This document shows positions 28,219 through 51,482 of a DNA stretch of 64,000 bases, piece after piece. This stretch comes from an uncultured Actinomycetes bacterium (GTDB lineage: Bacteria; Actinomycetota; Thermoleophilia; Gaiellales; F1-60-MAGs149): contig CAVTAC010000008.1 in assembly GCA_963732645.1 (NCBI GenBank), positions 251,127 to 315,126 of the forward strand, written 5' to 3'. The notes beneath the pieces were generated by a model. The model worked only from the letters and a program-made list of their open reading frames with translations. It ran no database searches and had not been told where the DNA came from. Every line of letters starts with the position of its first letter. Within the stretch, counting starts at the first letter, position 1. Position numbers and translations under genes: made by a program.

Positions 28219-31013
<2,795 letters not shown>

Positions 31014-31128
31014 GGGCGGTAGTGGAGCACGATCGGCTCGCAGCACGGCGTCGATCTCGGCAGGGGACACGGGCTCGAGAACCCGAATTGACGGGTGGTC
31101 ACGCACACGAAAGGAAAGGGAGCGCCCC

Positions 31129-31807
31129 ATGGAATCCCCGCCGCTCACCAAGCGCCTCGTCGCCGAGGTCATCGGGACATTCGGGTTCTTCTTCGCCGGC
31201 TTCTGCGGGCATCGCGACCCTGGCCACCCAGGGCGCACCCGCCATCCAGTCGCTCGGCATCGCGTTCGGATTCGGCCTCGGGCTGGCGATGATGATCTTC
31301 GCCTTCGGTCACGTGTCCGGCGGCCACGACAACCCGGCGGTCTCCGTCGGCCTCGCGGTGCGCGGCAAGCATCCGACGTCCGAGCTGCCCCCGTACTTCG
31401 TCGCCCAGCTCGTCGGCGGCCTCGCTGCGTCCCTGCTCGCATCGTCATGTTCGACGGCATCGGCACGATCAGCAAGCCGACCTGTTCACCAACCCGGGCG
31501 ATGGAGTGTCAGACTTCAAGGCGCTGGTGTTCGACTGATCGCGCCGCCTTTCCTGATCGTCATCTCGGCCGTCGCGACCGACGAACGCGCCGTGGAAGGC
31601 ATGTGGCGCCGATCGCCATCGGCCTCTTCATCTTCACCGCGGCGACCGTGTTCGGCCCGATGTCCGGCGGCTCGTTCAACCCCGCCGTTCCCTCGCCCCG
31701 GCGATCTCGCGGGCAAGTTCAGGAACCTCTGGATCTACATCGTCGGCCCCCCCGTCGGTGGAGCCCTCGGCGGCGCCGCCTTCAAGTGGTTCCGCCAGTC
31801 GGCCTGA
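31129..31807 (+). CDS. MIP-family channel (aquaporin/glycerol facilitator-like). About 5 frame disruptions.
   Basis: MESPPLTKRLVAEVIGTFGFFFAGF, FAFGHVSGGHDNPAVSVGLA (first NPA), GGSFNPA (second NPA, 30901 frame) and LWIYIVGPPVGGALGGAAF (29912..31807 frame). AAGGAAAGGGAG lies upstream of the ATG. Confidence 0.65.
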
Positions 31808-31823
31808 GCGCCGCTGAAGCATT

Positions 31824-31920
31824 GGGGTCTGACCCCCGAAACGCCCTAATTAGGGTCTGACCCCGGTTCGGCCGTTTCCGGGGTCTGACCCCAATTTCGT
31901 GTATTCGGGGGACAGGCCTG
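31824..31920 (+). repeat. 28-bp-phased array of the palindrome GGGGTCTGACCCC (three good units plus one degenerate unit)
   Basis: Units are at 31824-31836, 31852-31864 (AGGGTCTGACCCC) and 31880-31892. An in-phase degenerate unit is at 31908-31920 (8/13). The spacers are 15 nt. Confidence 0.75.
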
Positions 31921-31922
31921 GC

Positions 31923-31944
31923 GCACGGAAGACGCACGGAAGAC
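31923..31944 (+). repeat. Tandem duplication of the 11-mer GCACGGAAGAC
   Basis: GCACGGAAGAC occurs at 31923-31933 and 31934-31944. There is a single diverged copy (cACGGAAGgC, 9/11) in the related element at ~49691. Confidence 0.7.
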
Positions 31945-32001
31945 GCGCGGATCGCGCGATCGGTGCGGGTGCGTGCGTGTTTGGACACGGACATTGCGCG
32001 T

Positions 32002-32037
32002 TTGACGCGACCTTGATTGTCTGACTAAAGTCAGACA
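32002..32037 (+). promoter_or_regulatory. Candidate leaderless promoter with an overlapping palindromic operator for the MarR-GNAT gene
   Basis: TTGACG (32002-32007), an 18-nt spacer, then TAAAGT (32026-32031). ATG 32039 lies 7 nt downstream. The palindrome TGTCTGAC-TAAA-GTCAGACA (32018-32037) covers the -10 element and the start site. Confidence 0.45.
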
Positions 32038-32038
32038 A

Positions 32039-32929
32039 ATGGACACCGCAGCCGTCAAGGCCGTGCGCAGCTTCAACCGGATCGTCACCGAGCGGGTGGG
32101 CGCGCTCGACGAGCAGTACCTCGGCACCGGACGGCCGCTCGGGCAGGCCCGGATGCTGTGGGAGATCGGCTTCGACGGGGCCGACGTGCGCGAACTGCGC
32201 CGGCGGTTCGGCCTCGACTCCGGGCACGCCAGCCGGCTGCTGCGCGCGCTCGAGCAGCAGGGCCTCGTCGAGATGGGGGCGAGTCCGGCGGACGGCCGCG
32301 TCCGCCGCGCTCGCCTGACGGCCGCCGGCAAGCGGGAGCGCCGCAAGCTCGACCGGCTATCCGACGAGCTCGCCACCTCGATGCTCGAGCCGCTCGACGC
32401 CACGCAGCGCACGCGCCTGCAGACCGCGATGGCCGAGGTCGAGCGGCTGCTGCGCGCGTCGCTGATCGAGATCGAGGTCGCCGACCCGGCCCCGAGGACG
32501 GCGCTGGTGCCTCGACCGGTACTGGGCCGAGCTGGCCGAGCGCTTCGACGGCGGCTCGACCGAACGGAGACCCTCCAGATCTCGCGCGACGAGCTGACGC
32601 CGCCGAACGGGCTCGTGCTCGTCGCCCGGCTGCGCGGCCGCCCGGTCGGCTGCGGCTCGCTGCTGTTCGACGGCCGGAAGCCCGCGTACATCAAGCGCAT
32701 GTGGATCTCGCCCGACGTGCGCGGCGCCGGCCTCGGCCGGCGGCTGCTGCTCGAGCTGGAGCGCCACGCGGCCCGGGTCGGCCAGGTGAAGGTCGTCCAG
32801 CTCGAGACCAACCGCGCCCTCACCGAGGCGATCGCGCTCTACCGCGCGACCGGCTACCGGGAGGTGGCGCCGTTCAACGACGAGAAGTACGCCCACCACT
32901 GGTTCGAGAAGCGCCTGCCGCCAACCTGA
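32039..32929 (+). CDS. MarR-family HTH fused to a GNAT acetyltransferase domain. Open as one ORF but with locally compensating indels (~32490-32580).
   Basis: ORF 32039..32929 gives VRSFNRIVTERVGAL...GQARMLWEIG..GADVRELRRRFGLDSGHASRLLRALEQQGLV (wHTH) and AYIKRMWISPDVRGAGLGRRLLLELE...LYRATGYREV (GNAT). RWCLDRYWAELAERFDGG is readable only in a neighbouring frame. Confidence 0.75.
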   Translation: MDTAAVKAVRSFNRIVTERVGALDEQYLGTGRPLGQARMLWEIGFDGADVRELRRRFGLDSGHASRLLRALEQQGLVEMGASPADGRVRRARLTAAGKRERRKLDRLSDELATSMLEPLDATQRTRLQTAMAEVERLLRASLIEIEVADPAPRTALVPRPVLGRAGRALRRRLDRTETLQISRDELTPPNGLVLVARLRGRPVGCGSLLFDGRKPAYIKRMWISPDVRGAGLGRRLLLELERHAARVGQVKVVQLETNRALTEAIALYRATGYREVAPFNDEKYAHHWFEKRLPPT

Positions 32930-48782: not shown

Positions 48783-49559
48783 GTGCTGGTCGCGCTCGCC
48801 GCGGGCGCGTGCGTCGGCGATCGCGGTCGGTCTCGCCGGCGGCGGCGGCGCGGTGCTCGCGGTGCCGATGCTGGTCTACCTGCTCGACCAGTCCGTCCAC
48901 GCAGGCGACCACCGAGTCGCTCGTGATCGTCGTCGCCGCGTCGGGTGCCGGGGCTCTCGGCCACGCCCGTCATCGCACGGTCTGCTGGCGGCTCGCGGCG
49001 ACCTTCGCGGCGGCCGCGCTGCCGGGCACCGTCGATCGGCACGCTCGCGAACCGGGCGTTCGCGGCCGAGCTGCTGCTCGGGGCGTTCGCGGTCCTGCTG
49101 CTCGGGGTCTCCGTCCTCACGTGGCGCCAGGGCCGGGGAGCCGCGGTCGACGGCGCCGACCGGTGCCCCGAGCTCGACCTGCGCGTGGTCGCCCTCGCGG
49201 GGTTCGCCATCGGGTCGCTCACGGGCCTGTTCGGTGTGGGCGGCGGGTTCGCGGTCGTGCCGGCGCTGGTGCTCCTCCTGCGGGTGCCGATCCGGCGCGC
49301 GATCGCGACGAGCCTCGTGATCGTCACGGTCGTCTCGGCCGCCGGTCTGGCCGAGCATCTCGTCGCGGATGCGGATATCGCGTGGGACGTCGCGCTCCCG
49401 TTCGCGGTCGGTGCCATGGTGACGGCCTCGCTCGGCGGCACGCTCGCCCGGCGCATCCCGCAGCAGGTCCTGGTGCGCGGCTTCGCCGTGTTGCTGGCCG
49501 GGCTCGCGGCCTACCTGATCGTCTCCGTCACGCTGCTCGGCGGCCCGCCGAACGGCTGA
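48783..49559 (+). CDS. TauE/SafE-family anion (sulfite-type) exporter. About 3 frame disruptions.
   Basis: VLVALAAGACVG, then GLAGGGGAVLAVPMLVYLL (48853 frame), ATTESLVIVVAASGAGALGH (48809 frame) and GLFGVGGGFAVVPALVLLL...ATSLVIV (48945..49559). Confidence 0.7.
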
Positions 49560-49634
49560 CCGACGCAATCAGCTCGGCGTACCGTCGCCTCTTCCGGCCC
49601 GCGAGGCGTGGCCGACGTGACGCGCGCTTCAATA

Positions 49635-49679
49635 CTGGGGTCTGACCCCAAAAACGCCGTTCTCGGGGTCAGACCCCAG
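49635..49679. repeat. Perfect 15-bp inverted repeat made of two 28-bp-phased GGGGTCWGACCCC units
   Basis: CTGGGGTCTGACCCC (49635-49649), the loop aaaaacgccgttctc, then GGGGTCAGACCCCAG (49665-49679). This is the same motif and phasing as at 31824-31892. Confidence 0.8.
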
Positions 49680-49690
49680 AACGTTTCTCA

Positions 49691-49774
49691 CACGGAAGGC
49701 GCGCGGATCGCGCGACGGGACACGGTCCGTGACGGTTCGGGCACGAATCGATGTCTGACTTTCGTCAGACAAAT
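49691..49774 (+). repeat. Second copy of the conserved blocks of the composite intergenic element
   Basis: CACGGAAGGCGCGCGGATCGCGCGA (49691-49715) matches 31935-31959 at 24/25. GGACACGG is at 49718. TGTCTGAC-TTTC-GTCAGACAAAT (49752-49774) matches 32018-32040 apart from the 4-nt spacer. Confidence 0.75.
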
Positions 49775-49781
49775 TTCCCGC

Positions 49782-51482
49782 TCAGACCTCGATCGGGACG
49801 ACCTGCCAGCGCTCCACGTCGATCAGGCCCTGGTCGGTGATCTTCAGCGCCGGGATCACCGACAGCGCCAGGAACGAGAGGGTCATGAACGGCGCCGCCA
49901 CGTGGACGCCCATCTCGCCCAGCTCGTGCACCAGCACGTCGAGGGCCGGGACGACCTCGCTGGCCGGGCGGTCGCTCATCAGGCCCGCCACCGGCAGGGG
50001 GAGCTCGGCGCGGATCCGGCGGTCCTCGATCGCCACGATGCCGCCGCCGATCTCGGCCAGGCGGCGCACGCAGAGCGCCATGTCCTCGTCGGAGACGCCC
50101 ACGCAGACGATGTTGTGCGCGTCGTGGGCGATGGTCGTCGCGAACGCGCCGCGCTGCAGGCCGAAGCCCTGCACGAAGCCGAGGCCGACCTGGCCGGTGG
50201 CGTGGTGGCGCTCGATCACGGCGATCTTCGCGAGGTCGCGCGCCGGGTCGGCGACGACGGCGCCGTCGCGGACGGTCGGCTCGCAGCTCGAGCGCGTTCG
50301 TGATCAGCTGCATCGGGACGATCTCGATCACGCGGATCTGCCGCCCGTCGACGGCACGTGCAGCGCCGAGCGGCCGAGCGGCGCGGGGTGGACGCTCTGG
50401 CGCACCCAGATCGGCACCTCGGGCGACGGGAAGTCGGCCACCGCGCCGTCGCGGCAGACCTCGCGGCCGTCCTTGTAGACCGCCTCGGGCGCGAACGACA
50501 CCAGGTCGGGGAGCAGCATGAAGTCGGCGCGGTAGCCCGGCGCGATCGCGCCGCGATCGGTGAGCCCGTGGCAGCGGGCGCCGTTGGTGGAGGCCAGCAG
50601 GATCGCGTCCTCGGGCGACACGCCCTCCTCGACGGCGACGCGCGCCATGCCGTTGATGTGGCCCTCGCGCAGCAGCTCGTCGGGCTCGCGGTCGTCGGTG
50701 CAGAACGCCGTGTAGTCGGGGCCGTACCTCGTCACCAGCGGCAGCAGGTCGCGCAGGTTGCGCGCGTTCGACGCCTCGCGGATCAGCACGAAGCAGCCGC
50801 GCCGGCGCTTCTCGAGCGCCTCCTCCAGCCCGAACGACTCGTGGTCGGTCGAGATGCCCGCAGCCAGGTACGCGTCGAGGTTGCGGCCGGTGACGCCGGG
50901 CGCGTGGCCGTCGGCCCGCGTCGCCAGCGCGCGCTTGGCGAGCTCGCGCTCGTCGCCGGCGATGACGGCCGGGAAGTTCATCATCTCGGCCACGCCGAGC
51001 GTGCGGCGGCGGCGCAGGATCGACTCCATGTCGCCGAGCGTGAACGGGCGCCGCGGCGTCTCGAACGGGCTCGCCGGCACGCACGACGGCGCCATCACGA
51101 ACACGTCGAGCGGCACGCCCTCGCACGCGTCGAGCAGCCAGTGCACGCCGTCGGTGCCGAGCACGTTGGCGATCTCGTGCGGGTCGCAGACGATCGCGGT
51201 CGTGCCGTGCGCGATCACGAGCCGGGCGAACTCCGCGACCGTCAGCTTCGACGACTCGATGTGCATGTGCGCGTCGATGAACCCCGGCACGAGGTAGCGG
51301 CCGTGCGCGGCGACGCGGACGCCGCCGTCGTAGGCGCCGACGCCGGCGAACAGCCCGTCGGCGATCGCCACGTCGCCGTGCAGCCACTCGCGCGTGAACG
51401 CGCAGAAGACGTGCGCGCCCTCGACGACGAGATCGGGCTCGGCGTCGCCGCGGGCAACGGCGATCAGACGTCGGCGATCCAT
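49782..51482 (-). CDS. ade: Adenine deaminase (amidohydrolase superfamily). Two frame disruptions (~50230-50330).
   Basis: ORF 50328..51482(-) gives YLVPGFIDAHMHIESS...AIVCDPHEIANV...HAPGVTG..LDAYLAAGISTDHES. ORF 49782..50219(-) gives VIERHHATGQVGLGFVQGFGLQRGAFATTIAHDAHNIV. Confidence 0.8.

Follow-up and report, generated by a model that had tools for sequence, protein, structure and literature searches.

What is the composite intergenic element that occurs twice, in the same orientation, within 64 kb of the genome of an uncultured Gaiellales-type actinomycete? We analysed a 64,000-nt stretch of contig CAVTAC010000008.1 (assembly GCA_963732645.1, positions 251,127 to 315,126; G+C content 72.7%), hereafter the window, in which copy 1 (31824-32040) lies directly upstream of a gene for a MarR-GNAT fusion protein and copy 2 (49635-49774) lies between two convergent genes. 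Read directly from the two regions, the modules common to both copies stand in identical order: a hairpin (H1) built on the 13-mer GGGGTCWGACCCC, a module B that ends in the box CGCGCGGATCGCGCGA, a tail with CACG motifs and a palindrome, module D. An earlier interpretation made from the letters of the window (the sequence-only reading) had proposed a repeated composite element whose modules keep one order and one orientation and which none of the annotated features accounts for; this proposal is supported, and every coordinate on which it relied was borne out. We consider it likely that both copies belong to a dispersed, non-autonomous family of Gaiellales-like Actinomycetota of the repetitive extragenic palindrome (REP) or REP doublet forming hairpin (REPIN) type, that this family is associated with a REP-associated tyrosine transposase (RAYT), and that copy 1 has become fused to the MarR-GNAT promoter.

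A sharply bounded, hairpin-centred family

Within the window, the 13-mer core has five exact occurrences, all of them intergenic and all inside the two elements. The module B 25-mer CACGGAAGGCGCGCGGATCGCGCGA (49691-49715, matching 31935-31959 at 24 of 25 positions) has exactly two matches, and TGTCTGAC-n4-GTCAGACA is found only at 32018-32037 and 49752-49771, against 0.00 expected from shuffles in each case; a profile search of the 64 kb returned no third full copy. The identity between the two copies is about 72%, and their architectures differ. In copy 2, two 13-mers whose starts lie 28 nt apart (GGGGTCTGACCCC at 49637-49649 and GGGGTCAGACCCC at 49665-49677) form the perfect 15-bp inverted repeat that the sequence-only reading had described, with arms at 49635-49649 (CTGGGGTCTGACCCC) and 49665-49679 (GGGGTCAGACCCCAG). 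The greater length of copy 1 comes from two additional 28-nt 13-mer units, an 11-nt tandem duplication (GCACGGAAGAC twice) and about 25 nt ahead of module D that include a -35-like TTGACG. The duplication had been recognised from the outset, whereas the 'GT-rich insert' named beside it aligns with GGGACACGGTCCGTGACGG of copy 2 and is not an insert. Similarly, GGACACGG is indeed present at 49718 and 31983, but the family alignment places the two occurrences in different units of a CACG motif with a 21-nt period, and their supposed positional homology does not hold.

Beyond the window, blastn with the whole element recovered loci from metagenome-assembled genomes (MAGs) labelled Gaiellales or 'uncultured Actinomycetes', in which H1, module B and sometimes module D follow in the same order (loci in other assemblies are designated L plus a number). 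A joint pattern of hairpin arm and module B retrieved 55 further copies from soil-metagenome contigs. Across NCBI, ENA and JGI data there are more than 60 further copies, in intergenic positions, with at least three to six per MAG as lower bounds and two loci in the 64-kb window. The wider family that the sequence-only reading anticipated is thus present in many genomes and contexts, and its members define the ends of the element. Viral contigs gave no match in the pattern scan and the plasmid and phage collections no blastn match to copy 2, which argues that the element is not plasmid- or phage-borne.

The copies are dispersed and extragenic, and most of them stand past stop codons. Grouped by blastn, the 52 upstream flanks fell into 43 clusters and the 59 downstream flanks into 46, so that the copies occupy many unrelated contexts, at least 43 in number (clustering by tblastx was discarded, as low-complexity GC-rich frames joined everything). 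The same subtype is present at unrelated loci. Over the 148 nt that run from the first 13-mer to GTCAGACAAWTT, L128 shares 92% identity with copy 2 of the window; the flanks of the two are unrelated and encode different proteins, and the homology ends sharply just past module D. According to rough, heuristic gene calls based on the G+C content of third codon positions (GC3), 17 of the 22 copies with an upstream gene within 100 nt have the closest such gene on the same strand as the element, with a stop codon some 35-50 nt ahead of H1, and of the 35 copies with a downstream gene within 150 nt, 22 face a convergent one. Where orthologous sites were compared, divergence is usually faster in the element than in its coding flanks (for example, 71% versus 81-89%).

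Two further observations concern subtypes. At one shared intergenic site, L121 and L124 carry different subtypes, the element being 71% identical over only 129 nt and the coding flanks 81-83%, a hint that the element may turn over or undergo conversion while its site stays the same. A sub-family (L119, L121, L140, L145, L147, L148, L158, L162 and L168) ends in a conserved GGCAsGCTGCGAGsGTGGTG, beyond which the flanks diverge.

The centre of the element is a structure that the family preserves. We aligned 49 copies after removal of near-duplicates; the resulting consensus anatomy is given in Table 1. Reverse-strand matches of the profile show the left arm to be the right arm in inverted form, which makes the whole element a large imperfect palindrome. 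The sequence-only reading had set covariation against DNA-site-like conservation, and the inner stem of H1 does covary across the family. While the arms of H1 are invariant, its five inner pairs vary in concert: 48 cells changed on both sides, compared with 28.2 ± 4.2 after shuffling (none of 500 shuffles reached 48), with a covariation score of 0.124 versus 0.078 and 88% of cells paired versus 23-59% when the partner columns were slid. The central W of the arm pair appears as T/A in 20 copies, A/T in 8, T/T in 19 and A/A in 2, so this position is free. Copy 2 folds as single-stranded DNA at -47.8 kcal/mol (z = -8.4), with z = -4.8 for the RNA fold, in which the left-arm remnant pairs with 49695-49705. 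The family presents what defines a REP, a short GC-rich imperfect palindrome of about 20-40 nt (here GGGGTCWGACCCC with its flanks) repeated in extragenic space, as well as what defines a REPIN, two inverted arms about 28 nt apart that form one long, covariation-supported hairpin. Two candidates were set aside. A two-hairpin model, in which each 13-mer folds on itself, did no better than shuffles across the family, and a Tn3-type inverted repeat, considered because GGGGTCTGAC is shared with the Tn3 terminal repeat, was dropped as there are neither 38-bp repeats nor a Tn3-type transposase.

A covarying hairpin that lies 35-50 nt past same-strand stops in 17 of 22 cases could also act at the RNA level, either as a structured 3' untranslated region or intrinsic terminator, or as part of a minus-strand small RNA running from module D to H1. 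In L163 and L122, an inverted module D places TAAAGT/CAAAGT facing H1, from which a transcript of about 110-130 nt would result, and the REPs of E. coli, including those in bacterial interspersed mosaic elements (BIMEs), stabilise or terminate upstream mRNAs. Yet Rfam returned no match at the gathering score and only generic miRNA-precursor hairpin models at relaxed E-values, and the only helices that RNAalifold recovered from the 49 copies were H1 and the small hairpin with a GAT loop in the B box. There is no asymmetry between G.U and A.C mismatches, no U-tract follows H1, the terminator scan of copy 2 was empty, and at orthologous sites the coding flanks usually change more slowly than the element does. 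We regard an RNA-level element as an unlikely explanation of the family in its own right; it is compatible with a REP origin and may be a secondary role of such a repeat.

Adjacency to a RAYT-type gene

The REP-type reading is linked to a known system by the genes beside the 13-mer. When one genome per species was searched for pairs of 13-mers separated by 13-17 nt, at least 113 loci were returned from many phyla, where GGGGTCWGACCCC occurs mostly in pairs or arrays with mutually complementary immediate flanks. Unbiased clustering of the open reading frames (ORFs) of at least 100 aa around the pairs, over the 113 listed loci, yielded one cluster of IS200-like Y1 transposases (L034, L037, L052, L097 and L103), with hosts from Burkholderiales, Comamonadaceae, two Halomonas and Desulfobotulus. 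All five members passed the Pfam Y1_Tnp cut-off, and L052, the sole member scanned against NCBIfam, had 'REP-associated tyrosine transposase' as its only match. The 13-mers bracket the gene on both sides in L052, L097 and L103, which is the classical REP-RAYT arrangement, and stand at its 5' end in L037.

When the proteobacterial RAYTs were used as tblastn queries, they led to L141 and L152, two metagenome contigs that carry the actinomycete composite (E = 8e-13). In L141 and L152, a 192-aa ORF starts 75 nt past module B (L141:2617-3195) and encodes a divergent homologue, 31-35% identical to the proteobacterial proteins. Its relatives form a tight family of about 192 aa, several of them named 'RayT' by JGI. 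In the alignment, all members conserve an H-x-H motif (THHHVL aligned to NHVHLL) and the tyrosine of Y-I/V-x-x-NPV, which we take to be the catalytic residues by analogy with E. coli TnpA-REP. A RAYT-like gene follows about 75-100 nt past module B of a copy in L141/L152, L174, L175 and L176. In the last three, the copy directly 5' of the gene has the same orientation and consists of H1, the module B region and the tail, a TAnnnT hexamer lies 6-8 nt ahead of the ATG, and no copy was found 3' of the gene. Adjacency to a RAYT-type gene is thus observed in four actinomycete genomes and at four proteobacterial loci.

Copies beside the RAYT gene and dispersed copies also share genomes. L174 comes from the same MAG as the dispersed copies L002, L017, L032 and L049, and L176 from the Gaiellales MAG GCA_038321545.1, as do L024, L042, L099, L112 and L172. 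In GCA_038321545.1, three hairpins are identical down to their loops: the one upstream of the RAYT gene (L176) and the ones in dispersed copies L024 and L042. The identity extends to these three copies only, and three others in this MAG have different loops. Within this genome, the RAYT-flanking copy therefore matches the dispersed type. One RAYT locus was recovered per MAG, which is not a copy count. In the literature, we found neither REPINs nor RAYTs linked to Actinobacteria in any paper, and the 13-mer itself turned up only in unrelated primers and viral sequences.

Just past the RAYT stop, L174 (2890-2990) and L175 (3070-3170) have a conserved CGGAAG/CTTCCG inverted repeat, GCCTGCCGGAAGGTCGACrGCGCTTCCGyCGCAGG, which could be a terminator or a second recognition hairpin.

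Module D and the MarR-GNAT promoter

Copy 1 adjoins the start of the MarR-GNAT gene. At the six MarR-GNAT ortholog loci that we read (L169-L173 and L177; Table 1), CTGAC-TAWR-GTCAG followed by 5-7 nt and the ATG is present in all six. The promoter-like site of the window (TTGACG, 18 nt, TAAAGT; 32002-32031) ends 7 nt before the ATG at 32039, and the same layout recurs in the orthologs. Since 7 nt leave no room for a ribosome-binding site, the MarR-GNAT mRNA is probably leaderless, and its -10 would sit between the two arms, as the loop, of an operator-like inverted repeat. Among the orthologs, changes in one half-site of module D are matched by changes in the other (GTCTGAC/GTCAGAC, CCTGAC/GTCAGG, TTTGAC/GTCAAA). 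A conserved inverted repeat over the gene's own promoter is what an autoregulatory operator looks like, and binding to module D is accordingly a prediction from its sequence. L173 and L177 have the palindrome without the rest of the element, so that module D is older than the repeat and belongs to the gene, as its ancestral -10/inverted-repeat region. The heptamer GTCWGAC, which the sequence-only reading saw in both palindrome types, is real in this genome but unconserved in module D of the orthologs (CCTGAC, TTTGAC, CTCTGAC), and its significance is uncertain.

The rest of copy 1 is retained with this promoter. As expected if the element were conserved in relatives, copy 1 is kept at the orthologous site, with nucleotide identities of 86, 79, 72 and 78% to four orthologs, where the third codon positions of the adjacent gene have 76, 71, 72 and 62%. 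L169 and L170 share the decayed fourth arm of copy 1, which L171 and L172 have in intact form. No change is seen in the B box across the copy-1 orthologs, and CGCGCGGATCGCGCGA is 100% conserved in MarR-upstream orthologs found via the protein, independently of any DNA pattern. L170 keeps the composite despite an inserted NUDIX gene, which ties the element to the MarR-GNAT gene rather than to the MIP gene on its other side.

Module D also occurs in dispersed copies: copy 2 of the window, L128, L122, L163, L017, L032, L099, L123, L126 and L165. For six D-bearing copies, the tail matches that of the MarR-upstream copies best (0.72-0.78, versus 0.63-0.70 for D-less copies), with a weak signal for the copy-2 subtype. 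L099 and the MarR-upstream L172, from the same genome (GCA_038321545.1), share the TTTGAC/GTCAAAG variant. From these similarities, the D-bearing dispersed copies, copy 2 included, seem to derive from the MarR-upstream fusion, and the segment from hairpin to module D of the MarR-upstream composite may itself have been copied, with module D as the right-hand hairpin.

These properties of module D might also be read as those of a cis-regulatory DNA array, in which D, and perhaps the 13-mers and the B box, are operators of MarR-GNAT or another factor and the copies form a regulon. The inverted repeat over the MarR-GNAT -10 is conserved in all orthologs, D variants agree within a genome (L099 and L172), the B box is as invariant as a protein site, and the 21-nt spacing of the CACG motifs equals two helical turns. 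However, most copies lie past stop codons or between convergent genes with nothing to regulate, and module D is absent from 60 of 82 classified tails. The genes beside D-bearing copies (deformylase, TetR, PucR-type, glyoxalase, CNNM and chromate transporter) are functionally unrelated and hence form no coherent regulon. In copy 2, module D has the loop TTTC and has lost the -10-like hexamer, and no promoter-like site was found. A regulatory array would also leave the RAYT adjacency unexplained, and we think it quite improbable as an account of the family. The idea that the similarity was produced in assembly, by artefactual duplication or collapse, or that it reflects a segmental duplication private to this genome and without wider meaning, is refuted, even though several interrupted genes in the window suggest an error-prone long-read assembly: the copies are only about 72% identical with differing architecture, the copy-1 arrangement stands at the orthologous site in four independent assemblies, and NCBI, ENA and JGI data contain over 60 other copies.

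Table 1. Organisation of the repeat family, of the two window copies with their neighbours, and of MarR-GNAT ortholog loci
Feature	Position	Strand	Remarks
Consensus: optional left arm, 2-3 tandem CCTTCCGTGCG 11-mers		element's strand	reverse complement of right arm
Consensus: hairpin H1, then AGAACGTTTC, then GCACGGAAGG, then box CGCGCGGATCGCGCGA		element's strand	
Consensus: tail with CACG motifs	+15, +36, +57 from box GATCG	element's strand	
Consensus: module D		element's strand	in a minority of copies
Copy 1, three 13-mers	31824-31836, 31852-31864, 31880-31892	+	28-nt spacing; second is AGGGTCTGACCCC
Copy 1, decayed fourth arm GGGGGACAGGCC	31907-31918	+	closes hairpin-unit region 31824-31918
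Copy 1, tandem duplication and module B	31923-31959	+	GCACGGAAGAC twice (31923-31944), running into module B (31935-31959)
Copy 1, tail	31960-32001	+	homologous to tails of dispersed and RAYT-upstream copies up to GTTTGGACACGG
Copy 1, promoter-like site and module D	32002-32040	+	TTGACG 32002-32007, 18-nt spacer, TAAAGT 32026-32031, within module D 32018-32040
MarR-GNAT fusion gene	32039-32929	+	296 aa; Pfam MarR_2 and Acetyltransf_1; outside the repeat, fused to copy 1
Weak TauE-like membrane protein gene	48945-49559	+ (element's strand)	upstream neighbour of copy 2; stop 78 nt before first 13-mer
Copy 2, left-arm remnant CGCGCGCTTC	49621-49630	+	complementary to GAAGGCGCGCG of module B
Copy 2, hairpin H1, REPIN-like	49635-49679	+	CTGGGGTCTGACCCC, 15-nt spacer, GGGGTCAGACCCCAG
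Copy 2, linker AACGTTTCTCA and module B	49680-49715	+	module B: CACGGAAGG, then near-invariant box CGCGCGGATCGCGCGA
Copy 2, tail with CACG motifs (GGGACACGGTCCGTGACGG, TTCGGGCACGAATCG)	49716-49751	+	about 22 nt shorter than siblings L122, L163
Copy 2, module D palindrome TGTCTGAC-TTTC-GTCAGACAAAT	49752-49774	+	right end of element
Adenine deaminase gene	49782-51482	-	convergent downstream neighbour of copy 2; stop 7 nt past module D
MarR-GNAT ortholog L169 (Gaiellales)			81% aa identity; whole copy-1 composite upstream of ATG
MarR-GNAT ortholog L170 (ENA contig)			81% aa identity; whole composite; NUDIX gene between MIP and MarR-GNAT genes
MarR-GNAT ortholog L171 (Gaiellaceae)			77% aa identity; whole composite upstream of ATG
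MarR-GNAT ortholog L172 (Gaiellales, MAG GCA_038321545.1)			63% aa identity; whole composite upstream of ATG
MarR-GNAT ortholog L173 (ENA contig, different neighbourhood)			62% aa identity; without H1 and B; TCTCTGAC-TATA-GTCAGAGA directly before ATG
MarR-GNAT ortholog L177 (Chloroflexi)			55% aa identity; without H1 and B; TTGACA, 17 nt, TAAGGT inside CTGAC-TAAG-GTCAG, 7 nt, ATG

Several genes around the two copies are irregular. The adenine deaminase stop at 49782 was placed correctly from the start, and a rival longer ORF ending at 49765 has no Pfam match. Within the adenine deaminase frame, a short out-of-frame stretch with two in-frame stops (around 50220-50330) separates the amidohydrolase domain from the C-terminal domain, either as a compensating frameshift pair caused by sequencing error or as a sign of a pseudogene. 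The MIP/aquaporin gene upstream of copy 1 (29912-31860, + strand) has Pfam matches in two frames and is frameshifted near 31580; its orthologs in L169, L171 and L172 are intact (219 aa). Many other high-GC3 ORFs of the window look fragmented, which suggests an error-prone long-read assembly.

The 13-mer also takes part in repeats outside the family studied here. L109, from an actinomycete MAG, contains a D-like palindrome, GGTGTCTGAC-TGAA-GTCAGACACC, followed by a spacer of about 70 nt and 2-3 abutting GGGGTCWGACCCC units (L109:2663-2924 and L109:7447-7836). These two inverted copies of about 260 nt lie about 4.5-5 kb apart around two large ORFs, so that the two palindrome types co-occur there too. 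In Burkholderiales and other Pseudomonadota (L007, L014, L044, L045, L077 and L095), a larger repeat of their own has 3-4 GGGGTCWGACCCC units with conserved spacers, GGTTnTTCnnTTG ... CCGGGG ... CAACnGAAAAACC, indicating that the same 13-nt core seeds different composites in different phyla. In AT-richer genomes (L066, L103, L015, L085, L106 and L113), the 13-mer stands within AAAAGGGGTCWGACCCCTTTT, often as tandem pairs, a context that looks like a bidirectional intrinsic terminator.

Proposed working and relation to known repeats

REPINs consist of two inverted REPs with a spacer and flank single-copy RAYT genes (PMC3337134; PMC5581495), by which they are thought to be mobilised (PMC3337134). 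REP/REPIN and RAYT systems have been described in Pseudomonas and Enterobacteria (PMC3116915; PMC3337134; PMC5581495). By analogy with these systems, the family was most likely spread by a dedicated REP-type transposase. The core of the element is a REPIN-like doublet, in which a pair of GGGGTCWGACCCC units of opposite orientation folds into a single long hairpin. Attached to it are some 100-150 nt that correspond to the 5' flank of what would be the family's single RAYT gene, an HUH/Y1 tyrosine transposase. This flank comprises the CGGAAGG 11-mers, the invariant CGCGCGGATCGCGCGA box and the CACG-periodic tail. As the B box and tail correspond to the RAYT 5' flank, the repeated unit looks like the 'left end' of an ancestral IS200-like element, not a bare REP doublet. 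Judging from REP-RAYT and IS200/IS605 systems, the RAYT may bind the hairpin on single-stranded DNA, cut near its foot and copy the element to extragenic sites. Copies would persist where they do little harm, mainly just past stop codons. Copy 2 would then be a dispersed copy between convergent genes, of the D-carrying subtype and probably from the MarR-upstream composite; as a side effect, its 15-18-bp GC hairpin between the TauE-like and adenine deaminase genes may terminate or stabilise transcripts. Copy 1 would represent an old insertion directly upstream of the MarR-GNAT leaderless promoter/operator palindrome, with which it is now conserved.

Several findings weigh against such a REP/REPIN-type origin. 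The window contains no RAYT gene, so that for this genome the RAYT link is by homology only. The actinomycete protein has no Pfam match and reaches E = 7.8e-13 and 48.5 bits against the NCBIfam model REP_Tyr_transpos, short of the curated cut-off of 80, and in the four actinomycete genomes copies adjoin the RAYT gene on its upstream side only. Neither an empty site nor an insertion polymorphism was found, and every orthologous pair examined keeps its copy. Inner-stem mismatches are symmetric (22 G.T versus 24 A.C), with no sign of selection on one transcribed strand. The unit, at about 140-250 nt, is much longer than a classical REPIN, and a model based on the hairpin only leaves the absolute conservation of the B box unaccounted for; among the metagenome copies, B conservation is inflated because the search pattern demanded module B. 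The 21-nt periodicity of CACG and the identity of the 13-mer across phyla are likewise unexplained by the proposed working.

Comparison with known repeats nonetheless places the element closest to REP/REPIN-RAYT systems. Shared features are the short GC-rich palindromic unit arranged as an inverted, hairpin-forming doublet, the confinement of copies to extragenic space, the adjacency of copies to an HUH/Tyr transposase gene, with a RAYT-flanking copy identical to dispersed ones in the same genome, and the retention of copies at orthologous sites, which is consistent with vertical inheritance. In contrast to those systems, the host here is an actinomycete of the Gaiellales type, the unit of about 140-250 nt includes about 100 nt of RAYT 5' flank with an invariant box, the actinomycete RAYT is flanked on one side only and no GTAG-type tag is present. 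Moreover, some copies carry a host promoter/operator palindrome, and the 13-nt core is identical across phyla while the RAYTs are only about 31-35% identical.

Other systems resemble parts of the element. The BIMEs of E. coli are mosaics in which REP hairpins of alternating orientation are joined by other short conserved motifs, located between genes at their 3' ends. The element is likewise a REP-hairpin mosaic with extra motifs at gene 3' ends, but these motifs (the 11-mers, the B box and the CACG tail) are unrelated in sequence to those of BIMEs. Ends or miniature inverted-repeat derivatives of IS200/IS605 elements (palindrome-associated transposable elements) are similar in having a hairpin at or near each end (H1 on the left, D on the right), sharp ends and a Y1 HUH enzyme. 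Also as in these elements, terminal inverted repeats and target duplications were not seen in some of the flanks, where no search was aimed at them. They differ in that a RAYT-type host gene seems to supply the transposase here, tnpB is absent and no target tetranucleotide is definable. Correia and enterobacterial repetitive intergenic consensus (ERIC) repeats, imperfect palindromes with a length of 100-250 nt, occupy intergenic regions that are transcribed and may adjoin or provide promoter elements. The element shares with them its length, its palindromic form and its adjacency to a promoter, but not sequence, and the promoter at copy 1 is ancestral to the gene, not repeat-borne. Module D resembles MarR operators that overlap a -10 in its position directly 5' of a MarR-type gene and in its paired half-site changes across orthologs; it differs in that the regulator is a MarR-GNAT fusion with an apparently leaderless mRNA, and it is a predicted operator.

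A more far-reaching version of the REP/REPIN-type reading, which we hold to be doubtful, is that the REPIN fused with the MarR-GNAT promoter/operator spreads operator-bearing copies (at least ten contexts, copy 2 included) as mobile operator, decoy or promoter cassettes. Under the same proposal, a REP core that stays unchanged from Proteobacteria to Actinomycetota, while the RAYTs have only about 31-35% identity, would reflect an ancient, fixed hairpin-recognition code of one RAYT clade. If this were true, fusion with the promoter/operator of a regulator and the dispersal of operator-bearing copies would provide a concrete route to rewired or buffered regulation.

We would class the element as a RAYT-associated repeat of the REP/REPIN type with an unusual composite build, in a phylum for which we found no described case. 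REPIN-RAYT systems have been studied almost only in Proteobacteria, and a Gaiellales case means a wider host range, extending to abundant and barely cultured soil actinomycetes. An element that retains the 5' flank of its transposase gene bears on the proposed descent of REPINs from the ends of an IS200-like element. Finally, the family accounts for puzzling conserved intergenic blocks in these MAGs, and it may serve as a lineage marker.

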